64,000 nt of DNA from a bacterium (GCA_021789915.1 JAJYIV010000002.1:613-64612); one strand, 5' to 3'. Shown: positions 9,660-61,409, numbered from the stretch's first letter. Translations and numbers: made by a program. Notes: generated by a model not told the origin, from the sequence alone.

Positions 9660-9797
9660 ATGAACGATTTCGGGACGTGCGAAAACTGCGGTGCGGAAGA
9701 TCAGGAGCTTGACGAGAACGGCCTGTGTCCGGACTGCAGCGCGCAGGGACACACGGAGCGCGGCCCCGACATGGGCGACGAAGAAGAGAGCGCCTAG
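9660..9797 (+). CDS. Candidate 45-aa zinc-ribbon microprotein (below the ORF-track cutoff)
   Basis: MNDFGTCENCGAEDQELDENGLCPDCSAQGHTERGPDMGDEEESA. CxxC-14-CxxC pattern, high GC3, TATAAT at 9625-9630. No SD sequence. Confidence 0.4.
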   Translation: MNDFGTCENCGAEDQELDENGLCPDCSAQGHTERGPDMGDEEESA

Positions 9798-10885
9798 CGT
9801 CCGGCCAGGGCGCGCACGCGTTCCGCCAGGCGTTCCGCGGCGCCTCCCGGGAACAGCGCCCCGATCCGTTCGGACAGGCGGCGCTGTTTTTCTTTGTCTC
9901 CGACAAGCGCCGCGACCTGCGCGACGAGCGCGGTCCCGCCGCGCGCCTGCTCCACGGCCACCGCCGCCCCGCGGCGCAGGACGGCGCGCGCGTTTTCCTC
10001 CTGCGGCGAGCGCGGCAGCGGCACGAGCACGCACGGCTTGCGCAGCGCCGAGAGCTCCGCAAGCGTGCCCATGCCGGCGCGCGCGACCACGACGTCGGCA
10101 GCCGCCAAGGCGTCGGCCAAATCGCGGCCAAGGAGCAGCTCCACGGCGGCGTAGCCGGGCCCGGCCGCGCGCAGGCCCTCGGTGACTTTCCCGCGGCCCG
10201 TCACGTGGATGACGTCGGCGACGGCGCGCATGCGCTCCATCCCCGCCTCAAACGCCCGGTTGATCCACGCCGATCCGCCCCCGCCGCCCAGCACGAGCGC
10301 CACCGGACGCGCGCCGGAAAAGCCGTAGCGCGCGCGGGCGGCCGACGCATCGCCGCGCAGGATCGACGGCCGCACGGGCTGGCCGACGACGAGCGTTTTG
10401 TCCTTCGGGAACGCCGCGGCCGTCTCGGGCCACGCGACGGTGATGAGCGACGCGGCGCCCGCACACAGGCGGTTGGACAAGACCGGCCGCACGTCGGGCT
10501 GATGGATCCACGACGGAATCTTGAACCGGCGAGCCAGCAGGACGAACGGCACGCCGGTGAAGCCGCCGGCCGAGGCGACGACGTCCGGCCGTTCGCGGCG
10601 GAGCAGGCGCCACGCGGCGAACAGCGCCGCGGCGGCTTTGAACGGGAACACCAGCCACTCGGCGGACGCGTAGCGCGTCAGGCGCGCCACGGGCACGGCG
10701 TGGAACGGAATGCCCGCCTGCTCCACCAGCGCGCGCTCCGGCCCGCGCGCCGTTCCCGCCCACGCGAACGACGCGTCCGGATCGGACGCGCCATGCCTGT
10801 CGGCAGGCAGGCGCAACGCTTCGGCGACGGCGAGCAGCGGCGTGACGGGACCAAGCGTTCCTCCGCCGGCAAAGAGGATTTTCAT
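9794..10885 (-). CDS. murG: UDP-N-acetylglucosamine--N-acetylmuramyl-(pentapeptide) pyrophosphoryl-undecaprenol GlcNAc transferase
   Basis: Start MKILFAGGGTLGPV, the typical MurG N-terminus. dcw context. Confidence 0.9.
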   Translation of the reverse strand: MKILFAGGGTLGPVTPLLAVAEALRLPADRHGASDPDASFAWAGTARGPERALVEQAGIPFHAVPVARLTRYASAEWLVFPFKAAAALFAAWRLLRRERPDVVASAGGFTGVPFVLLARRFKIPSWIHQPDVRPVLSNRLCAGAASLITVAWPETAAAFPKDKTLVVGQPVRPSILRGDASAARARYGFSGARPVALVLGGGGGSAWINRAFEAGMERMRAVADVIHVTGRGKVTEGLRAAGPGYAAVELLLGRDLADALAAADVVVARAGMGTLAELSALRKPCVLVPLPRSPQEENARAVLRRGAAVAVEQARGGTALVAQVAALVGDKEKQRRLSERIGALFPGGAAERLAERVRALAGR

Positions 10886-10892
10886 AGCGGTA

Positions 10893-10917
10893 AGCCAACA
10901 GCCGTCAGCCGTCAGGG
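10893..10917. repeat. Heptamer array (GCCGTCA units)
   Basis: AGCCAACAGCCGTCAGCCGTCAGGG. Inverted relative to the array at 11322-11353. Confidence 0.85.
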
Positions 10918-11280
10918 ATTGGCCTTCGGCCTCGAAGAACACAAGACGTTCAACATACGCAAAACTTCATGCAAGAGACAGTCGGCTCGATCGTAATCGA
11001 GTGAACCGGTTCTCGGAAGCCGCCGAGCGATCGAGAGTTGCGTCTGAAGCTCGGCCGCCGAACCGTAAGCGATCGAGAGGAACCTGGCAAACTCATTGTC
11101 GTAGCCGCGCATCTTCCCTTCCGCGATATTCGATGGAATGGAAACCGCTGCTCGTCTCATTTGGCTTGTTAAACCGAATCGTTCGTCCGTCGGGAAAGAG
11201 TCGGTCAAGAGGTAAATCTCAAGGGAAAGATCCATGGCTTTTTGCCAGACAATGAGATCTTCGTATGGTCCTGTCGACAT
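10912..11280 (-). CDS. Four-helix-bundle protein (23S rRNA intervening-sequence protein family)
   Basis: YEDLIVWQKAMDL...IPSNIAEG...FLSIAYGSAAELQTQL is the family signature. The start could also be at 11292. Confidence 0.8.
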   Translation of the reverse strand: MSTGPYEDLIVWQKAMDLSLEIYLLTDSFPTDERFGLTSQMRRAAVSIPSNIAEGKMRGYDNEFARFLSIAYGSAAELQTQLSIARRLPRTGSLDYDRADCLLHEVLRMLNVLCSSRPKANP

Positions 11281-11321
11281 ATTGGTTCGCATGGTTGGCG
11301 TCAAATACGCGAGACGCTCGT

Positions 11322-11353
11322 GCCTGATGGCTGATGGCTGACGGCTGACGGCC
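11322..11353. repeat. Heptamer array (GCTGAYG units)
   Basis: GCCTGATGGCTGATGGCTGACGGCTGACGGCC. TGA recurs every 7 nt. Confidence 0.9.
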
Positions 11354-11360
11354 CGCCCCA

Positions 11361-12479
11361 TCACGCTATCTTCCGATGCTTCGAAATGTTCAGCACGACG
11401 CCGATCGCCGAGAGCAGCACCGCCAGCGACGTGCCGCCGTAGGAGACGAACGGCAGCGTAATGCCCGTCATCGGCATGATGGCGAGCATGGAACCGACGT
11501 TCACGAAGGCCTGCACGATGATCCACGCGGCGATGCCGACCACAACGTATTTCGAAAACGCGTCCGGCGCGCGCTTCGCCACCGTCAGCAGGCGCTGGAA
11601 CAGCAGGAGGAACAGGCCGATCAGGACCGCGCAGCCGATCAGGCCGAGCTCCTCGCCGATGACGGCGAAGATCGAGTCGCTGACGGCTTCCGGCAGGTAC
11701 TGGAATTTCTGGCGCGAATGGCCGTAGCCGAGCCCGAAGACGCCTCCGGAACCGATGGCCAAGAGCGCCTGGTTGACGTGATAGCCGATGCCCTGCGGAT
11801 CGAGCTGCGGGTTCAGGAACGTCATCAGGCGCGCGGCGCGGTACGGCGCGATCTTTATGAGCAGCGCCAGGCCGGAGGCGCCGGAAACCACCAGCCCCGC
11901 GATATACGGCAGCGGCGCGCCGGCGACGAAATACACCGCCAGGGCCTGCACGACGACGACGGACATCGTCCCGATGGCCGGTTGCGCGATCAGCAGGAGA
12001 AGGACGGCGCCGAGCGCGACGAGGAAGGGGACGAGGCCCGTGGAAAAACGGCGCATGCCGTCGGCGCCGCGGCGCTCGAGCCAGGCGGCGAGATAAAACA
12101 GAAAGGTCAGCTTGACGATTTCCGACGGCTGGAAGGAAAACCACGGACCGATGGAAATCCAGCTGTGCGCGCCGTTGATGTTGCCGGAGGAAATACCCGG
12201 GACGAAGACGAGCACGAGGAGTCCGAGCGAAGCCGCGAAGATCTTCATGGCGTGCCGGCGCCAGAACGTGTACGGCACGCGGCTGCACGCATACAGGCCG
12301 ATCAGCCCCGGCAGCAGGCCGAACACGAACTGGTGCTTGACGTAATAGGACGCGTCGCCGAACTGGTCGAGCCCCATGCCCGTGCCCGCCGACGCGAGCA
12401 TCAGCAATCCGAAAAGAAGGAGCGCCGCGACCAGGGCGAGCAGGACATAATCGACGCGATGAGGATCTTTCAGCGGCAT
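11361..12479 (-). CDS. ftsW: Peptidoglycan glycosyltransferase FtsW (SEDS family)
   Basis: Multi-TM SEDS-like sequence between mraY and murG. Start set at MPLKDPHRVDY because the upstream 19 codons are encoded by a heptamer array. Confidence 0.85.
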   Translation of the reverse strand: MPLKDPHRVDYVLLALVAALLLFGLLMLASAGTGMGLDQFGDASYYVKHQFVFGLLPGLIGLYACSRVPYTFWRRHAMKIFAASLGLLVLVFVPGISSGNINGAHSWISIGPWFSFQPSEIVKLTFLFYLAAWLERRGADGMRRFSTGLVPFLVALGAVLLLLIAQPAIGTMSVVVVQALAVYFVAGAPLPYIAGLVVSGASGLALLIKIAPYRAARLMTFLNPQLDPQGIGYHVNQALLAIGSGGVFGLGYGHSRQKFQYLPEAVSDSIFAVIGEELGLIGCAVLIGLFLLLFQRLLTVAKRAPDAFSKYVVVGIAAWIIVQAFVNVGSMLAIMPMTGITLPFVSYGGTSLAVLLSAIGVVLNISKHRKIA

Positions 12480-12510
12480 GAGAACGGAAAGATGCTGAAC
12501 AGGCTCTTGG

Positions 12511-12534
12511 GCGTTGGCTAATGGCGAACGGCTC
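12511..12534. repeat. Degenerate heptamer array
   Basis: GCGTTGGCTAATGGCGAACGGCTC, between the mraY stop and the ftsW start. Confidence 0.6.
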
Positions 12535-12543
12535 ATGACTTTT

Positions 12544-13602
12544 TCAAATCAGCGCGTCCAGCAGGGCAAGGGCGACGCCCAGCGCCGCGGCGACATACGC
12601 GACGACCCACAGGCGCATGACGATTTGCGGCTCCGGCCAGCCGCGCGCTTCCAAATGATGGTGGAACGGCGCGGACAGGAAGAGCTTGCGCTTGAACAGG
12701 CGCCGCCAGGCAAGCTGGAGCAGCACGGACAGCGATTCCAGCACGAACACGAATCCGATCACCGGCAACAGCAGGGCGGCGTTCGTCAGCATGGCGATGA
12801 CGCCCAGCGTGATGCCGAGCGACATGGATCCCGTATCGCCCATGAAGAAACGCGCCGGGTGGATGTTGAACCACAGGAAGGCGAGCAGGCCGCCGATGAC
12901 GGCGGCGCAGAAGACGGCCAAATCGTATTTGCCCTGCGCGAACGCGATCAAGGCGTAGGCGGCATAGGCGGGAAACAGGACGCCGCCGGCCAGGCCGTCC
13001 AGGCCGTCCGTCTCATTGACGGAGAAGGCCGTCGCGATGAGGACGGCCATGAAGACCGGCACGTACCACCAGCCGATGTCGAAGGTGCCGAAGAACGGCA
13101 CGTGCAGGATGCGCCAATCGAGCTTGACCGTGAACCACCAGGCGCCGACGGCGGCGATGGCCGCGTAAATGAGCAGGCGGTGGCGGGCGCGCAATCCGCC
13201 GCCATGCGCGCCGATGCGGCGGATGTTGAAATAATCGTCCACCAGGCCGACCAGCGCCGAGGCGACGAGGGCGCCGAGCGGCAGCAGCGTCTGCGCGCGC
13301 GTCAGGAAAGACAGCCGCGCGAACGCCGAATCCGGCAGCAGCCAGCCGAGCAGCGCGCACAGGAGGATCACGGCGAGCACCGTTCCCCACACGAGCAGCC
13401 CGCCCATGGTGGGCGTGCCCGCCTTCCTGGCATGCAGCCTGGCATAGACCGGCGTCTCTTCCGCCAGACGGATCGATTTGCCCATCTTGTGCGATTCCAG
13501 CCAATGCAGCAGCGCCGGCGCCCACAGGAACGCCAGCAGGAACGTAAGCGAGGCGATGACCAGAAGGCGGATCAGCTGGAAAGACGCGAGAGGGAGAGTC
13601 AT
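12544..13602 (-). CDS. mraY: Phospho-N-acetylmuramoyl-pentapeptide transferase
   Basis: 352 aa. Conserved MraY motifs NxxNxTDGLDGL and HHHxE (APFHHHLE). Confidence 0.95.
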   Translation of the reverse strand: MTLPLASFQLIRLLVIASLTFLLAFLWAPALLHWLESHKMGKSIRLAEETPVYARLHARKAGTPTMGGLLVWGTVLAVILLCALLGWLLPDSAFARLSFLTRAQTLLPLGALVASALVGLVDDYFNIRRIGAHGGGLRARHRLLIYAAIAAVGAWWFTVKLDWRILHVPFFGTFDIGWWYVPVFMAVLIATAFSVNETDGLDGLAGGVLFPAYAAYALIAFAQGKYDLAVFCAAVIGGLLAFLWFNIHPARFFMGDTGSMSLGITLGVIAMLTNAALLLPVIGFVFVLESLSVLLQLAWRRLFKRKLFLSAPFHHHLEARGWPEPQIVMRLWVVAYVAAALGVALALLDALI

Positions 13603-14769: not shown

Positions 14770-14800
14770 GCTTTTAGCCATTAGCCTTTAGCCATGAGCC
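14770..14800. repeat. Heptamer array (TTAGCCA units)
   Basis: GCTTTTAGCCATTAGCCTTTAGCCATGAGCC. TAG at offsets 6, 13 and 20 on plus; TAA at 11, 18 and 25 on minus. Confidence 0.9.
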
Positions 14801-19051: not shown

Positions 19052-19477
19052 TTACGACGCCAGCCCGAGCTTTGCCTCGACGACCTGCAAACGCCCCTCG
19101 AAGCGATCCATCCGCAAGGTCGGCGCGACCAGCTCCTGCTCGATCGTCAGCTGCAGCCGCGCCACCTGGTCGCTCACGGCAAGGACTTCCTGACGAACGT
19201 CTTGAAGATCCTCCTTTGTCGCGAAACGGTCGAAATCGTCTTTCGTGGCAAAGTTCTGCAGATCGTCTTTCGTGGCAAAGTTCTGCAGATCGTCTTTCGT
19301 GGCAAAGTTCTGCAGATCGTCTTTCGTGGCAAAACGGTCGAAATCGGCCTTCATTGCCACATTCTCCTTTACGAAACCGATGAATTCGTGCATTTCCGAC
19401 GTTAAACCTTCGACCTTCCGTTCAAGGCCATCGAACTTCTGCGCCAGCTGATTTGTCGTCAGGTGTTCCTCACTCAT
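19052..19477 (-). CDS. Coiled-coil protein with tandem FATKDDLQN repeats (DUF1640-like pattern)
   Basis: 141 aa. Five 9-aa repeats flanked by heptad-like helices. Confidence 0.7.
   Translation of the reverse strand: MSEEHLTTNQLAQKFDGLERKVEGLTSEMHEFIGFVKENVAMKADFDRFATKDDLQNFATKDDLQNFATKDDLQNFATKDDFDRFATKEDLQDVRQEVLAVSDQVARLQLTIEQELVAPTLRMDRFEGRLQVVEAKLGLAS
19208..19345. repeat. 27-bp tandem repeat (3 perfect and 2 degenerate units) inside a CDS
   Basis: ATCGTCTTTCGTGGCAAAGTTCTGCAG x3 at 19235-19315, with diverged flanking units. Confidence 0.9.
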
Positions 19478-21872: not shown

Positions 21873-21914
21873 GCGGTTAGCCATTAGCTGTTAGCCGTTA
21901 GCTTCTAACTGTTG
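21873..21914. repeat. Heptamer array (TTAGCYN units)
   Basis: GCGGTTAGCCATTAGCTGTTAGCCGTTAGCTTCTAACTGTTG, directly upstream of the pyrG start. Confidence 0.9.
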
Positions 21915-26865: not shown

Positions 26866-26896
26866 GGCTGTAGGCTTTTAGCTTTTAGCTGTTAGC
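26866..26896. repeat. Heptamer array, left arm of an imperfect inverted pair
   Basis: GGCTGTAGGCTTTTAGCTTTTAGCTGTTAGC. Confidence 0.85.
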
Positions 26897-26913
26897 CGAA
26901 ATAGTTCCCATCC

Positions 26914-26945
26914 GGCCAGTAGCCAATGGCTAATGGCCAAAAGCC
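26914..26945. repeat. Heptamer array, right arm of an imperfect inverted pair
   Basis: GGCCAGTAGCCAATGGCTAATGGCCAAAAGCC. Confidence 0.85.
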
Positions 26946-46440: not shown

Positions 46441-46590
46441 TGGAGTCAGAAGTCAGAAGTCAGAAGTCAGGGCGGAGGAGTAGCCAGGAGCATGTAGTTC
46501 GTAGTCAGGGCGAGACACGCGGGCTAAAGCCTAACACCTGCCGAATGCCGAATGCCGCCGGCTGAAACCTAGAACCTGAAACCTAAAGCC
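46441..46590. repeat. Mosaic of 7-nt-periodic repeats
   Basis: AAGTCAG x4, CTAAAGC/CTAACAC, CCGAATG x2, then TGAAACC-TAGAACC-TGAAACC-TAAAGCC. Confidence 0.85.
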
Positions 46591-46601
46591 CAACGCCTCA
46601 C

Positions 46602-47655: not shown

Positions 47656-48579
47656 ATGCGCATCATCCTTCTCGGCGCCGACGGGCGGCTCGGCACGGCG
47701 CTGCGGCGCGTGCTGCCGCAGTATGCGTGGATCGCGCCGACACGCGAGGCGCTCGACGTCCTCGACCGCGCGGCGGTCGACGCGTATCTTGCGGCGCATC
47801 CCGCGGACGTGCTCGTGAACGCGATCGCGGACAACCGCGTGGACGATGCGGAGACGGATCCGGCGCCGGCGCAGCGGCTCAACGCCGACCTTCCCGGCCT
47901 GCTCGCGGAAGCCGCGGCCGCGCACGACATGCCGTTCGTCCACTTCTCGACGGACTACGAGTTCGACGGGACGAAGCGCGACGGCTATGTCGAGAGTGAC
48001 GAACCGCATCCGCTCAGCGTCTACGGCCGCACGAAAGCGGAAGGGACGAAACGCGCGCTCGGAAAAAATCCGCGCGCGTACGTCGTCCGCCTCTCGCGTC
48101 TCTACGGCGAGCCTGGGACGTTCCCGGGCGCGAAGCGCAGCTTCGTGGAAATCATCCTGGACCAGGCCTCGCGCGAAGCGCGCTTCGAGGTGAACGACGC
48201 GGAAGTTTCCGCGCCGACGTGGGTGGATGACGTCGCGCGGCATTTGGACCAGTACATCCTGCAGCCCTCGTCCCTTCTACCCACTACCCACGACCCAAGA
48301 CCCCTTTCCCCCGGCCTCTACCACATGGCCAATCAAGGCGGCGCCACATGGTACGAGTGGGCCAAGGCGATCATCGAGCTGAAGGGGTTGCCCAACGAGA
48401 TCGTGCCGCGCGCGCCGACGGCGCGGCCGGCCAAGCGTCCGGCGTTTTCCGCGCTGCGCTCGACGAAGATTCCGCCCATGCGTCCGTGGCGCGAAGCGCT
48501 TGAGGAGTATCTTTGTTGTCATCCCGAGGGAGCACAGCGACCGAGGGATCCGCTAGATTCTTCGCTTTGCTCAGAATGA
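47656..48579 (+). CDS. rfbD: dTDP-4-dehydrorhamnose reductase
   Basis: MRIILLGADGRLG.., STDYEFDG and YGRTKAEG motifs. The last ~20 codons and the stop are supplied by a palindromic repeat. Confidence 0.85.
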   Translation: MRIILLGADGRLGTALRRVLPQYAWIAPTREALDVLDRAAVDAYLAAHPADVLVNAIADNRVDDAETDPAPAQRLNADLPGLLAEAAAAHDMPFVHFSTDYEFDGTKRDGYVESDEPHPLSVYGRTKAEGTKRALGKNPRAYVVRLSRLYGEPGTFPGAKRSFVEIILDQASREARFEVNDAEVSAPTWVDDVARHLDQYILQPSSLLPTTHDPRPLSPGLYHMANQGGATWYEWAKAIIELKGLPNEIVPRAPTARPAKRPAFSALRSTKIPPMRPWREALEEYLCCHPEGAQRPRDPLDSSLCSE

Positions 48580-51349: not shown

Positions 51350-53398
51350 TCACCGCACGCGCGTCCGGAACAGCTCGTCCGGCCACTTGGCGAAATACTT
51401 GAGGAAGCTGATCGAGTGCGCGCGGGCCATCCGGTTGACGAGCAGCGTGCGCAGCAGGCTGCCCTGGCGCACCGATCCCTTGCCGTAGGCATGCTGCAGC
51501 GCCGCATCGGCCACATAGTACACCGGCCGGTGCATCGCCCACGAGCGGCGGCACAGATCCACGTCCTCGAAGTACATCCAGAAGCGCTCGTCGAAGCCGC
51601 CCAGCGCGCGCCAGTGCTCCATCGGCAGGAACAGCGCGGAGCCCTGCGCCCAATCCACCATGCGCGTTTCGCCTGGCGGCGTGTCGCGCATCAGGAAACG
51701 ATGGAGGTAGCGGCGGCCGAAGGCCGTGCCGCCGAGCGTCGTGCGCTGGACGAGCGGCAGCGGCCACGACGGGAAGCGGCGCACGGTTTCCTGCGCCTGT
51801 CCGTCGGGATAGACGATCTTGGGCGCGGCGATGCCGGCGCGCGGATGCGCGCGCATGAACGCGACGAGCTTGGCGAAGAGCCGATCGTCGACGAGTTCCG
51901 TATCCGGGTTCAGCACGAAGAGGAACTCGGCGTCGAGCTCGGCGGCGCCGCGGTTCACGGAGCTGCCGTAGCCGGCGTCCCAGTTGCGCTGGACGACCAC
52001 GCCGTCGGGAATCGCGTCCCACAGCACGGCCGCGGCATCGTACGCCGTCGACGCGTTGTCCACGACGACGACGCCGACGCGCAGGCCGGACGCCTTGCGC
52101 GCGCGATCGAGCGAACGCAGACACGCGGCGCTCAAATCGTCGTGCGAGACGATGACGACGGCGATGTCGAGGTAAGTAGCTGGCGGCTGGGGGCTGGCGG
52201 CTGGGGGAGAAAACGGGAGCGGGGCCTGCGCGCGCGCCGCGTCCGCGGGCGACGGCACGGCGCGAACCGCGCCGAACCGCGCGGCGTACGCGCGCCGCTT
52301 CGTGATCAGCTCATGCCGATGCTCCCACGTTTCCCGCCACGCCTCGGTGCACACGCGCGGCCGCATGACGAGCCAATATGCCGCCTTCGCCGCCTCATAC
52401 GGAAGCACGGCCCATGCGCGCGCCGGCGCCGAACGGAACTCCCCCTGGCTCCCTCTTGAAAAGAGGGGGAAGTGCATCGCCAGCGTCCAAAGATGGTTGC
52501 GGTACGAGTGGAACACCGGCCGCCAGGTTTGCGCGGTGCGGCCGATTCCCCCCCTGCCTGCCTCGCATACCCCCCGCCTGCCAAAATGCGGCCAGCAGGC
52601 AGCCCCCCTTGGCAGGGGGGCAATCCTGGCCGTGCCGAAGCTGCGGCGATGGTACGCGACGGCGTCGGACACGACGCCGGAGGCGAAGCCCGCGCGGCGC
52701 AATCTCCACGCAAGCTCGACGTCTTCCTTGTACGAGACGAACGACGGGTCAAACAAATTCCCGTCCAACGACGCCGCCTCTACCGCCGCACGGCGATACA
52801 TCGGCAGGCAGCCCGACACCCCGAACGCCTCGTGCACGCCCTCATGCAGCTGCGCCGTCGAAACACGCTCCCCTGCTCCGATGTCGCGCACGGCGCCCGT
52901 TGCCGACATCGCCAAGCCGAAACTGTCGATCACGTCCGTGCGCCCGCCGGACCCCTCTGCCCAGCTGAGCTGGGCCGTCCCCCCTTGGCAGGGGGGGACG
53001 ACACACGCCGCCCGATCGAAATCCCATCGATACACGCGCCCGGCGACGGACCCGAGCCGCGCGTCCGCGTCCAGCGCGGCGACGAGCCGCTCGAGATACG
53101 CCGGTTCCAGGATCGCATCGTCGTTGTGCAGCATCACGTACGCCGCCTGATGCTTGGAGAACAGCAGGTTATGCGCGCCGGCAAAGTCGACGTTGCGCGG
53201 CCCGACGTCCACGTACACGGCGCGGTCGCCGAGTTCCCGCGCGAACGCGCGCACCGCCTCGGCCTGCACGGGATCCGACGCATTGTCCGTCACGTACAGC
53301 GTCCAATCGCGGAACGTCTGCGCGCGCAGGGACGCCAAAATATGCGGCAGGTACCGCGCGCCGTCGTAGCAGGAAAGTTGGATGGCGAGTTTGGACAT
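51350..53398 (-). CDS. Fused double GT2 glycosyltransferase (682 aa)
   Basis: Two GT2 modules (LSCYDGARYL..HNDDA and VIVSHDD..LNPDT..YFEDVDLC). Carries two repeat inserts. Confidence 0.8.
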   Translation of the reverse strand: MSKLAIQLSCYDGARYLPHILASLRAQTFRDWTLYVTDNASDPVQAEAVRAFARELGDRAVYVDVGPRNVDFAGAHNLLFSKHQAAYVMLHNDDAILEPAYLERLVAALDADARLGSVAGRVYRWDFDRAACVVPPCQGGTAQLSWAEGSGGRTDVIDSFGLAMSATGAVRDIGAGERVSTAQLHEGVHEAFGVSGCLPMYRRAAVEAASLDGNLFDPSFVSYKEDVELAWRLRRAGFASGVVSDAVAYHRRSFGTARIAPLPRGAACWPHFGRRGVCEAGRGGIGRTAQTWRPVFHSYRNHLWTLAMHFPLFSRGSQGEFRSAPARAWAVLPYEAAKAAYWLVMRPRVCTEAWRETWEHRHELITKRRAYAARFGAVRAVPSPADAARAQAPLPFSPPAASPQPPATYLDIAVVIVSHDDLSAACLRSLDRARKASGLRVGVVVVDNASTAYDAAAVLWDAIPDGVVVQRNWDAGYGSSVNRGAAELDAEFLFVLNPDTELVDDRLFAKLVAFMRAHPRAGIAAPKIVYPDGQAQETVRRFPSWPLPLVQRTTLGGTAFGRRYLHRFLMRDTPPGETRMVDWAQGSALFLPMEHWRALGGFDERFWMYFEDVDLCRRSWAMHRPVYYVADAALQHAYGKGSVRQGSLLRTLLVNRMARAHSISFLKYFAKWPDELFRTRVR
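52548..52621. repeat. GC-rich double-hairpin repeat (G6 subfamily), in-frame within a CDS
   Basis: ..CCCCCCGCCTGCCAAAATGCGGCCAGCAGGCAGCCCCCCTTGGCAGGGGGG. Reverse complement of the 60812 copy. Confidence 0.9.
52959..52999. repeat. GC-rich hairpins, in-frame within a CDS
   Basis: GCCCAGCTGAGCTGGGC plus GTCCCCCCTTGGCAGGGGGGGAC, translated as PPCQGGTAQLSWA. Confidence 0.85.
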
Positions 53399-55757: not shown

Positions 55758-55761
55758 AGAA

Positions 55762-55788
55762 GTTCGCCGTTAGCCGTTAGCCGTTAGG
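55762..55788. repeat. Heptamer array (GCCGTTA units)
   Basis: GTTCGCCGTTAGCCGTTAGCCGTTAGG. Confidence 0.9.
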
Positions 55789-55810
55789 AAAAAGGACGCG
55801 CAGCCCCCCA

Positions 55811-55835
55811 AAGCCAAAGGCTAATGGCTAATGGC
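55811..55835. repeat. Heptamer array (GGCTAAT units), inverted partner
   Basis: AAGCCAAAGGCTAATGGCTAATGGC. Confidence 0.9.
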
Positions 55836-55840
55836 TTTTT

Positions 55841-59465: not shown

Positions 59466-59495
59466 GCGTTTAGCCATTAGCCGTTAGCCTTTAGC
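59466..59495. repeat. Heptamer array (TTAGCCN units)
   Basis: GCGTTTAGCCATTAGCCGTTAGCCTTTAGC. Confidence 0.9.
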
Positions 59496-59506
59496 ATGTG
59501 TCTCTC

Positions 59507-59530
59507 GCCTGACGGCTGACGGCTAATGGC
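59507..59530. repeat. Heptamer array (GGCTGAC/GGCTAAT), inverted partner
   Basis: GCCTGACGGCTGACGGCTAATGGC. Contains the stop codon of the 59523..61409 ORF. Confidence 0.9.
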
Positions 59531-61409
59531 TTGCAATGACATACAGCGTCTCGATCCCGAACGTCTGCACCGGCACGAACGTAAGGCCGTCGGCCTTCAG
59601 TTTGTCCGTGTTGAGATAGTTCAGATCTTGCGCCGGCAGCGTGATGCCGAAGTAGTACGTCGGCGCGTGCGCGACGAGCGCGGGCAGCAGCGCATAGGTC
59701 CGCGGATCGCGCAGCGGATAGCGCACGGCGCGATCCGGAAAGAAGATTTTGTCGTCGCGGTCAACGACGATGACGGCGTCCGCCGGCGTCAGGCGCATCA
59801 CGGCGTCATGCACGGCGCGCTCTTGCGCCAACACCTGCGCCTCAGCGAACAAGCCGTCCTCCGGGGTCAGGAACGCCGTGCGGAACCCGAGCGCCGCCCA
59901 GGCGACCCAGCCGACGACGAGCACGACGGAGCCGAGGCGCTTCGCACGCGCGGCAAGCTCGTCGAGCGCCACGGCCGCGAGCGGCACCCAGGCGACGAAG
60001 ATCGGCAGCCAGTACCGCACGTGCGAATTGCCGACGGTGATCTGCGTCGGATCCGGATTGTCCGTGAACGTCCAGCTGCCGTACATCAGCACGAGCCAGA
60101 CCGTCACGACGAGGGCGACGAGGAGATAGGGCCAAAAGCAGCTGGCAGCTGGCAGCTGGCAGCTGGGGGAAGAACCGCGACGGCGCTTCGACAAGACGCG
60201 GACGGCCAACAAGATGATGCCGAGCGCCGCCAGGACGAACTCCCACCAGAACATCCTCAAGCCATAGGCGACGAACTGCCGCCAGGCCAGGCGCGGATGG
60301 ATGCCGAAGGGAAAGACGAAGGAGAGCGCTCGCTCCATGGCGCGCCGCCACGCGGGCATGGAGGCTCCGGGGGCGAGCGCTGCCGCAGACGTGGATGATT
60401 CCCCCCCTGCCAAGCCTGTCCTGAGCGAAGTCGAAGGAGGGGGGCTGCCGGCTGACTCCATGACGGCCGGCGGGGGGGTATGCGCCACGGCTATGGCCGG
60501 CACGGAGACGAGATCGCCGCCGGACGCGTCCGCCGCCGCCTGGTAGCCCGTCGTCCACGGCGAACCGTACAGACGCTGGTTCAAAAACGGCATGGGCGAG
60601 AGGACGACGAGGAACCCAAGCACGCCGGCGGCGACGAAGCGGCGATCCAGCTGCCGCCATTGCCAGGCGAAGGCGGCCGCCGCGGGAACGACCAACCACA
60701 CGGCTTCCGACGCGCGGATGAAGAGCGCGAGCCCCAGCAGCGCGCCCGCGGCGAAACCGTCGAGCGCATGGTGCCAGCGCCCCGCGGATGCACGGGAAGC
60801 GCCCGCGAGGATTGCCCCCCTGCCAAGGGGGGCTGCCTGCTGGCCGTCATGCGGCAGGCGGGGGGTATGCGAGGTGGACGTGGTGGAAGCGTTTTGAAAC
60901 GGCCGCGCGAGGAAAAACCAGAAGGCGAAGCCCACGCATGCGAGGAACGGCACATTGGGCATGAGCGAGCGGGCCGTGTAGAACCACCACGCCGGCTGCA
61001 GCGCGAGCAGCGCGCCCGCGATCCATCCCGCGCGCCGGCCGAACAGGCGCCCGAAGACGGCCGCCCACGCGAGCACGCCGAGCGCGGAGAGCAGGATCGG
61101 CACGTACGGGATCGCCCGGGCGCCGAACGCCTTCGCCGCGACGCCGAGCGCGAGCGGCAAGCCGAGGAAGCTCGCGGGAACGAGCGCGCCGCGCGTCGCA
61201 AGCACGCTGCGCGGATGCAGCGCGTCGCCGAGCGCGGCGGCGAGCGGCTCGGGCGCGGACAGCGTCGACGTCGCCGCGTACGCCCCGGCGAAGAACGACA
61301 CGGCCGTTTCGTCCGGCGACACGAAGATGGCTCCCGACGCGCGCAGCGCGAGGGAACCGAGGACGAGCAGCAGGCAGGAAGAGGCGAGCAGCCAGCGGAC
61401 GGGGTTCAT
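59523..61409 (-). CDS. Polytopic membrane protein, probable ArnT/PMT-like glycosyltransferase
   Basis: 628 aa with more than 10 TM segments and a soluble C-terminal domain. Sits in a glycosylation cluster. Two repeat inserts. Confidence 0.5.
   Translation of the reverse strand: MNPVRWLLASSCLLLVLGSLALRASGAIFVSPDETAVSFFAGAYAATSTLSAPEPLAAALGDALHPRSVLATRGALVPASFLGLPLALGVAAKAFGARAIPYVPILLSALGVLAWAAVFGRLFGRRAGWIAGALLALQPAWWFYTARSLMPNVPFLACVGFAFWFFLARPFQNASTTSTSHTPRLPHDGQQAAPLGRGAILAGASRASAGRWHHALDGFAAGALLGLALFIRASEAVWLVVPAAAAFAWQWRQLDRRFVAAGVLGFLVVLSPMPFLNQRLYGSPWTTGYQAAADASGGDLVSVPAIAVAHTPPPAVMESAGSPPPSTSLRTGLAGGESSTSAAALAPGASMPAWRRAMERALSFVFPFGIHPRLAWRQFVAYGLRMFWWEFVLAALGIILLAVRVLSKRRRGSSPSCQLPAASCFWPYLLVALVVTVWLVLMYGSWTFTDNPDPTQITVGNSHVRYWLPIFVAWVPLAAVALDELAARAKRLGSVVLVVGWVAWAALGFRTAFLTPEDGLFAEAQVLAQERAVHDAVMRLTPADAVIVVDRDDKIFFPDRAVRYPLRDPRTYALLPALVAHAPTYYFGITLPAQDLNYLNTDKLKADGLTFVPVQTFGIETLYVIASH
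60399..60485. repeat. Composite GC-rich repeat, in-frame within a CDS
   Basis: TTCCCCCCCTGCCAAG plus CCTGTCCTGAGCGAAGTCGAAGGAGGGGGG plus CTGCCGGC..GCCGGCGGGGGGGTATGCG. Confidence 0.85.
60812..60874. repeat. GC-rich double-hairpin repeat (G6 subfamily), in-frame within a CDS
   Basis: TTGCCCCCCTGCCAAGGGGGGCTGCCTGCTGGCCGTCATGCGGCAGGCGGGGGGTATGCGAGG. Confidence 0.9.

Follow-up and report, generated by a model that had tools for sequence, protein, structure and literature searches.

Analysis of a 64,000-nucleotide stretch of bacterial DNA (GCA_021789915.1, JAJYIV010000002.1:613-64612; the whole stretch is called the window) showed a small gene for a four-helix-bundle (4HB) protein between ftsW and murG of the dcw cluster. 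The interval of about 10886-11360, from the ftsW stop to the murG start, is probably a cassette of the intervening-sequence (IVS) type, in which a functional 4HB gene and two inverted arms made of heptamer arrays occupy a dcw spacer. The favoured explanation is that of a passenger cassette, self-insulating and seated within an intergenic hairpin.

The window had a G+C content of 65.5%, and its FtsW showed 63-64% identity to FtsW of Candidatus Uhrbacteria metagenome-assembled genomes. Because of these two values, the source appears to be a high-GC, Candidatus Uhrbacteria-like member of the Patescibacteria (candidate phyla radiation, CPR). Four genes formed a minus-strand series, namely mraY, ftsW, a 122-aa open reading frame (ORF) and murG, all with predicted starts. 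The features of the locus are as follows.

12544-13602, minus strand: mraY, first gene in the series.
11361-12536, minus strand: ftsW, the upstream host gene (PF01098 at 3.9e-97).
11320-11353, minus strand: 5' arm, CCGTCAG x2 and then CCATCAG x2 in transcript sense (Tandem Repeats Finder, period 7, 4.1 copies).
11281-11319, minus strand: leader from the 5' arm to the 4HB start codon, as read from the sequence.
10912-11280, minus strand: 122-aa 4HB gene (PF05635 at 1.4e-37, TIGR02436 at 1.9e-35).
10893-10915, minus strand: 3' arm, CTGACGG x2 and then CTGTTGG in transcript sense, supplying the 4HB stop codon and lying 7 nt from the murG ATG.
9794-10885, minus strand: murG, the downstream host gene, with its ATG start at 10885 (PF03033 and PF04101).
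10884-11369, minus strand: predicted long-range helix, in which 11329-11369 pairs with 10884-10925 and the whole ORF is looped out (minimum free energy and centroid folds agree, z = -3.5).

In transcript order, the ftsW stop is followed by (CCGTCAG)2(CCATCAG)2, the 39-nt leader, the 4HB ORF, (CTGACGG)2CTGTTGG, 7 nt and the murG ATG. The initial annotation had described a perfect 14-bp inverted repeat bracketing the 122-aa gene between ftsW and murG, and its coordinates matched exactly: CCGTCAGCCGTCAG at 10902-10915 and CTGACGGCTGACGG at 11338-11351 are perfect reverse complements. The repeats had also been described as embedded in heptamer arrays, and period-7 arrays enclosing the 14-mers were found at 10899-10915 (2.4 copies) and 11324-11352 (4.1 copies). 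The 5' arm holds the perfect 14-mer at 11338-11351 and forms inverted-repeat pairs with the 3' arm, and in an inverted-repeat search the arms could be extended to 22 nt with 86% of positions complementary, or to 35 nt with 77%. A single further exact copy of the 14-mer was present in the 64 kb (at 59509), while with two or fewer mismatches there were 11 matches against 1.24 expected from shuffles, a number reached in 0 of 100 shuffles.

The 4HB stop codon (TGA, 10914-10912) sits in the first CTGACGG unit of the 3' array, as had been annotated; the array described there as right-hand is so in gene orientation only and in fact lies at the low-coordinate end. The 3' array also supplied the stop codon as the usual arrangement among homologous loci. 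The 4HB ORF is ended by the 3' arm because this arm has TGA in all three sense frames. The 5' arm has no sense-strand stop, and ftsW terminates at its own TGA just 5' of it. In most of the AT-rich homologues, TAG, TAA or TGA occurred in all three frames of both arms. No Shine-Dalgarno-like motif was visible in the leader (11281-11319).

The nearest homologue of the 4HB gene (locus L161, 78% amino acid identity) occupies the same ftsW-murG junction, and the gene 3' of its cassette is 81% identical to the N-terminus of the window murG. Its inverted arms are a compensated variant of those in the window, with TTAGCCA/TGGCTAA in place of TCAGCCG/CGGCTGA, so that a relative with the gene at this position does not lack the flanking arrays.

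The 4HB protein passed the curated thresholds of both PF05635 (23S_rRNA_IVP; 128.6 bits, cut-off 33.8) and TIGR02436 ('four helix bundle protein'; 121.4 bits, cut-off 24), and it carries the conserved family motif GxxRxxxSxxxNxxE, described in PMC3936711, as GLTSQMRRAAVSIPSNIAEG. The closest solved structure was XCC0516 of Xanthomonas campestris (PDB 2gsc, a four-helix-bundle pentamer; E = 5e-25), and an exact look-up of the window protein returned no record. Across eight 4HB gene pairs dN/dS was 0.05-0.16, and between the window and L161 genes the proportions of nonsynonymous (pN) and synonymous (pS) differences were 0.14 and 0.84 (saturated), respectively. These values show strong purifying selection. 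Given a dN/dS of 0.05-0.16, the protein is therefore functional, unlike the S23p ORF of Coxiella, which has been reported as decaying and untranslated (PMC4990558). The base composition of the gene is foreign-looking, with a G+C content at third codon positions (GC3) of 0.59 in the window and 0.60 in L161 against 0.85-0.89 in the flanking genes of both loci and 0.86-0.89 in those of the window.

The bracket was then scored in a metagenome scan of 80 loci with close homologues of the window 4HB protein. A bracketed cassette was defined by mutually reverse-complementary 7-nt (rarely 8-nt) arrays within about 100 nt of both ORF ends. An inverted-complementarity flank score was used, as strict period-7 detectors under-call (2-3 positions of the unit are variable, and some units have 8 nt), and control ORFs were called by length. 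Nearly all 80 loci had an upstream tandem array of 7-nt (sometimes 8-nt) units, typically (NNTAGNN)n, and its reverse complement, (NNCTANN)n, downstream. The arm units varied among loci, yet the two arms of each locus remained complementary. The window cassette scored 15 against a shuffle 99th percentile of 10. A score above 10 was obtained for 68% of 57 distinct 4HB genes, all close homologues, and for 5.8% of 191 neighbouring ORFs (odds ratio 35, Fisher p = 8.5e-22), and 69% of 61 4HB genes scored above the shuffle 99th percentile against 9% of non-cognate partners. The bracket is thus a property of the gene family and not of the window locus alone. Upstream arrays were of the TAG type in 31 loci and of the CTA type in 5, while downstream arrays were CTA in 27 and TAG in 3; array polarity is fixed relative to the 4HB ORF. 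The spacers of inverted repeats with periodic arms were bimodal in length (below 100 nt, or 350-500 nt).

The same bracket score was computed for 1049 non-4HB ORFs from all loci. The top scores belonged to two GxxExxY genes, a divergent 4HB gene in L121 and two RAYT-like genes (REP-associated tyrosine transposase; REP, repetitive extragenic palindromic). The GxxExxY genes (TIGR04256, PD-(D/E)XK nuclease superfamily; 126-127 aa) are both in a Falkowbacteria dcw locus (L044, 5479-5949 and about 10100-10650), where each is bracketed by inverted periodic arrays of TTACAAA-type units and one has murD and ftsW as its neighbours. The same kind of bracket is thus used by a small-ORF family unrelated to 4HB. 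The RAYT-like genes (L025, 11371-11919; L158, 2705-3238) have REP-like palindromic flanks and served as a built-in positive control for the metric; PF01797 matched the L025 gene only, and the L158 gene had no Pfam match at all. REP/RAYT-type systems coexist with heptamer arrays in CPR contigs and use different repeats.

Two further ORFs were seen in L142 (1001-2456). A 4HB ORF there runs on into pilin-like sequence, and a second ORF begins like a 4HB protein (MPKSYKKSIVWKKSIDLVEK) and is fused to an N-terminal segment resembling that of type IV pilins. Both may be cassettes that have decayed or fused.

Outside the CPR, 14 plasmid-borne 4HB genes were sampled from Cyanobacteria, Bacteroidota and Alphaproteobacteria, and 10 of the 14 had inverted periodic arms, for example (GTAGGGA)n/(TCCCTAC)n. 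The plasmids included those of Nostoc, Anabaena, Geminocystis, Stanieria, Picosynechococcus, Leptolyngbya and Riemerella, and 4HB genes were wedged into operons between nrdB and nrdA, cas6 and cas4, and cmr2 and cmr3. In Nostoc edaphicum the flanking nrd genes run opposite to the 4HB gene, and arm polarity tracks the 4HB gene, not the host operon. In Xanthomonas campestris, a GGGAATC array lies between accB (XCC0517) and XCC0516 and overlaps the XCC0516 start (PMC4692102, supplement). On a Pseudanabaena galeata plasmid (L169, about 1080-1660), a 4HB gene between cas6 and cas4 has long direct arrays, with about 14 copies of AAAGCTA upstream and AAAGCCA downstream, and is an exception to the inverted rule.

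The Azospirillum lipoferum 4B plasmid AZO_p2 (L173; NC_016586.1, 13189-15930) has a 23S rRNA gene (Rfam large-subunit model, 2140 bits) that is interrupted by a 4HB ORF lacking annotation. The IVS spans about 1146-1600 of this locus, and its stem arms of about 30 bp are heptamer arrays, (ACNGAGG)n/(CYGTCNT)n, with a fold z of -9.3. This insert is a classical 23S rRNA IVS with the same architecture of array, 4HB ORF and inverted array, and the 23S-IVS geometry proposed for the window was borne out by it. The architecture is family-wide in Patescibacteria (CPR), Cyanobacteria, Bacteroidota and Alphaproteobacteria.

It is very improbable that the arrangement is a coincidence in which arrays are generic to every intergenic spacer of the genome and a small gene of no special kind has them on both sides by chance. 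The window does hold about 8 array sites for its one 4HB gene, several of them beside housekeeping genes, and the 9% of non-cognate arms indicates that arms of different loci sometimes pair. However, each spacer beside the 4HB gene carries one arm type, whereas the gene-less sites carry both. The same bracket recurs in four phyla and in an rRNA IVS, and the window gene combines an atypical GC3 with absence from this junction in relatives. Coincidence is already contradicted by the bracket enrichment over neighbouring genes and over non-cognate partners, and by the Azospirillum rRNA IVS.

The classical counterpart of the cassette is the 23S rRNA IVS with an S23p/PF05635 ORF, known from Leptospira and Coxiella, which encodes the same protein family as the window ORF (PMC4990558). 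The units are of similar size (about 475 nt for the window cassette, 428-444 nt for the Coxiella IVS; PMC4990558). Both have terminal inverted repeats whose stem loops out the ORF (a predicted fold in the window), and both lie inside a highly conserved transcription unit with a GC content below that of the host. The Azospirillum IVS and the window cassette further share heptamer-array arms. The location differs: a classical IVS sits in a 23S rRNA helix loop (helix 9, 25 or 45), whereas the window cassette lies between two protein-coding genes of an mRNA operon, and no rRNA was found in the 64-kb window, so the cassette does not lie where a classical IVS lies. Excision by RNase III without religation is a feature of the classical IVS, and for the window cassette it would be an analogy. 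The cassette is an IVS-type 4HB unit outside rRNA, and one more general than the initial annotation could see.

The initial annotation regarded the gene as an insertion into a place where ftsW and murG are normally adjacent, and the dcw loci of relatives agreed with this. A comparison set of 80 related dcw loci was searched for 4HB genes with tblastn and a narrow hidden Markov model. None of the 80 had a 4HB gene at the ftsW-murG junction and one had it elsewhere (L038), although the narrow model initially missed the divergent L121 gene, so that counts of loci without a 4HB gene are lower bounds. The ftsW-murG gap was 21 nt or less, or an ATGA overlap, in about 25 of the 80. In about 15 (L009, L012, L013, L016, L017, L020, L023, L047, L050, L078 and others) the two genes are separated by a hairpin without a gene, whose periodic arms are built from units particular to the lineage. 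A Uhrbacteria relative (L003, 7111-7620) has a different, 169-aa ORF in this spacer, with no NCBIfam match and no flanking arrays, and insertion at this junction seems to be recurrent.

That the cassette is a transferable unit, as had been suggested, was supported by the atypical GC3 and by an identity island shared by loci L103 and L106. Their cassettes are 96% identical in nucleotide sequence (dS 0.16, pN 0.017), while the surrounding DNA is 45-67% identical and the flanking proteins 50% and 42%. The island stops at the outer array edges. In at least this pair of genomes, the cassette is far younger than its surroundings.

The proposed mechanism is as follows. The cassette would be co-transcribed with mraY-ftsW-murG, and its arms could pair as RNA or as single-stranded DNA, which would loop the ORF out of an intergenic hairpin. 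Looping-out may make the insertion harmless to the host operon or rRNA. Spread would be occasional, an empty periodic-arm hairpin or its loop being replaced through recombination within the arms, or could alternatively depend on some activity of the 4HB protein. Once inserted, a cassette might be inherited vertically for long periods, as in the window and L161.

Several observations weigh against this explanation. Arrays far outnumber 4HB genes (1 gene per 864 kb of dcw loci), and most arrays are cassette-free. The 80 metagenome loci were picked by similarity to one protein and are not a whole-family sample. The L103/L106 pair is the one clear, strong identity island found. The window and L161 have kept the same site despite about 20% amino acid divergence and saturated synonymous sites, and this cassette appears to be a stable resident through long vertical retention, not an active mover. 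The genes scanned around the cassette included no transposase, recombinase or reverse transcriptase, and no target-site duplication was evident at it. Finally, the mismatches in 38 arm-arm stems (21 G·U-type, 27 A·C-type) showed no G·U bias. RNA-level function of the stem is therefore without support, and the arms look like DNA-level inverted repeats and not like a selected RNA helix. Their similarity behaves as if kept by concerted evolution or whole-unit transfer.

The stem is also central to a second explanation, raised in the initial annotation, in which RNase III (or another nuclease) would cut the mraY-ftsW-4HB-murG transcript to the benefit of the host, uncoupling ftsW and murG expression and releasing the 4HB mRNA. 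In the folded RNA of 491 nt (10880-11370, minus strand), the ORF is enclosed, in both the minimum free energy and the centroid structure, by a stem longer than 20 bp in which the murG start codon is buried, and the predicted helix would also sequester the ftsW stop codon. The L161 RNA gave the same fold topology, with the compensated arm changes noted above. RNase III cleaves homologous 23S IVS stems, in vitro for Coxiella and reportedly also in Leptospira and Salmonella (PMC4990558). Nevertheless, such processing is judged quite unlikely here: the stem mismatches show no preference for G·U over A·C, tandem repeats of the arm type are also found singly, and most relatives run the same operon with ftsW and murG abutting. 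No known RNA family was found in the cassette, and a promoter/terminator-like scan of its minus strand found no promoter or terminator.

The initial annotation had listed three gene-less inverted heptamer pairs in the window. All three exist, at slightly different limits (26873-26940, 55761-55839 and 59469-59531), and all fold as hairpins. They are given below with the single-arm arrays.

26873-26898/26920-26940 (arms), minus strand: gene-less hairpin between two MacB/FtsX-like permease genes (fold z = -4.4).
55761-55789/55807-55839 (arms), minus strand: gene-less hairpin of TTAGCC/GGCTAA units between dTDP-sugar-epimerase-like and dehydratase genes (fold z = -3.3).
59469-59497/59506-59531 (arms), minus strand: gene-less hairpin with a third exact CTGACGGCTGACGG copy, between two minus-strand genes (-34.3 kcal/mol, z = -5.3).
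21876-21905, minus strand: single-arm array, GCTAAYN x4 in transcript sense, between the rplI terminator-like hairpin and the pyrG start codon.
14773-14795, minus strand: single-arm array, GGCTAAN x3 in transcript sense, directly 5' of a start codon.
12515-12532: single-arm array in the first codons of the annotated ftsW ORF.

The three gene-less hairpins lie between co-directional housekeeping genes, and their polarity relative to transcription is that of the cassette arms. Cassette arms, gene-less hairpins and the single-arm arrays share one unit family, T(T/C)AGCC(R) and its complement. The gene-less hairpins may be vacant sites, as had been suggested, or cassette derivatives from which the gene was lost. 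In a Uhrbacteria locus (L004), gene-less hairpins at 188-249 and 1734-1820 lie on both sides of mraY with AAGTAAAATGTAAAA-type arms in each; hairpins in different spacers of one genome share units there.

These dispersed arrays bear on a third explanation, a partnership like that of RAYT and REP, in which the 4HB protein would act in trans to bind, maintain or disseminate heptamer arrays, and the gene-less arrays and hairpins would be its products or clients, not empty landing sites. This is possible but unlikely. As in RAYT with REP/REPIN (REP doublets), a single small gene is flanked by inverted repeat copies and the repeat also occurs gene-less in many intergenic regions, here as arrays of the cassette unit family scattered through the window. 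L121 has two very divergent 4HB genes with different array units, while L149 has two similar ones with shared units. The RAYT-like genes with REP-like flanks were the only strongly bracketed genes other than GxxExxY, and taxa with heptamer arrays (Xanthomonas, Nostocales) have 4HB genes adjoining such arrays. Unlike REP elements, the arms are tandem heptamers and not imperfect palindromes, and dispersal of identical units is weak: exact arm 10-mers were only 2.3-fold enriched elsewhere in the same loci (0.052 against 0.022 per kb). Many array-bearing dcw loci have no 4HB gene within 13 kb. The gene product is not a Y1 (IS200-like) transposase, PF05635 being its sole family match, and we know of no catalytic activity for a pentameric 120-aa helical bundle. 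The unrelated GxxExxY bracket fits arms that serve as a platform better than arms that are a specific ligand. RAYT proteins as the agent of the heptamer arrays were rejected, since the L025 and L158 genes have ordinary REP-like palindromes and no heptamer arrays.

A distant relative of the 4HB protein, Avd, is the accessory protein of diversity-generating retroelements and shares the four-helix-bundle fold family, which also speaks for a partnership with the arrays. Avd binds nucleic acid. The match of the window protein to the Avd model NF033474 was weak (E = 6e-4, 20 bits against a cut-off of 80). A diversity-generating retroelement was rejected for the cassette on this match, far under the cut-off, and because no reverse transcriptase was found among the genes scanned near it; template and variable repeats were not specifically sought.

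A wider proposal is that PF05635/TIGR02436 proteins are the missing partner of heptamer arrays, which they would recognise, maintain or mobilise much as RAYTs do with REPs, and that 23S rRNA IVSs represent one of the places where a general class of cassettes, nested in hairpins and spanning phyla, lands; we regard it as unlikely.

The passenger cassette also resembles miniature inverted-repeat transposable elements, foldback elements and integron cassettes, being a short unit with hairpin-forming inverted repeats, gene-less derivatives and a promoterless ORF in an operon. Unlike these, it has no transposase, integrase, target-site duplication or attC-type site, and its arms are tandem arrays in place of unique terminal inverted repeats.

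Heptamer repeats have been described as GGGAATC in Xanthomonas and GGGGA(C/T)T in Nostoc (PMC4692102) and as TAACTGA in Beggiatoaceae (PMC4679880). Like the window arrays, these and the cyanobacterial short tandemly repeated repetitive sequences are intergenic, have a period of 7, often lie near start codons and give stops in three frames. Xanthomonas arrays frequently form convergent (inverted) pairs, as in the window, with 70 such pairs in Xanthomonas campestris whose function is not known (PMC4692102). In a survey of periodic repeats, heptamers ranked first in abundance among the intergenic ones, and for their function the survey saw "no clear clue" (PMC6344855). These studies draw no tie to PF05635 genes, whereas the window arrays specifically bracket one. 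No published link of PF05635/TIGR02436 with heptamer or inverted arrays was found in the searchable literature, which is not proof of absence.

Two decades-old puzzles are concerned here. The first concerns what purpose the conserved ORF in 23S rRNA IVSs serves and by what route IVSs spread, and the second the predominance of 7-nt tandem repeats in the intergenic DNA of bacteria. They are tied together by the systematic nesting of the IVS ORF family between inverted heptamer arrays in at least four phyla, which holds in rRNA and in ordinary operons (dcw, accBC, nrd, cas/cmr). The unit is testable, and cultivable, genetically tractable hosts exist (Xanthomonas campestris XCC0516, Nostoc). For annotation, small 'four helix bundle protein' genes that break conserved operons are inserted elements and not operon members.

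Some minor features of the window were also recorded. Codons 1-19 of the annotated ftsW (12479-12536) overlap the heptamer array at 12515-12532 and are unconserved, relatives aligning from about residue 23. The true ftsW start is probably the Met near 12479, which would place this single-arm array in the mraY-ftsW spacer. Between two convergent genes, the region 46441-46597 holds period-7 arrays (AGTCAGA x4, TGCCGAA x2.7 and AACCTRA x3) whose units are unrelated to the TYAGCC family. Further period-7 arrays at 60136-60169 (GCAGCTG x4), 52179-52207 (GCTGGSG x4) and 48276-48303 (CTACCCA x3) were located in predicted coding regions or at their margins. At 19235-19333, ATCGTCTTTCGTGGCAAAGTTCTGCAG is repeated perfectly in tandem (27-bp unit, 3.7 copies), inside or beside a small minus-strand ORF (19052-19477).

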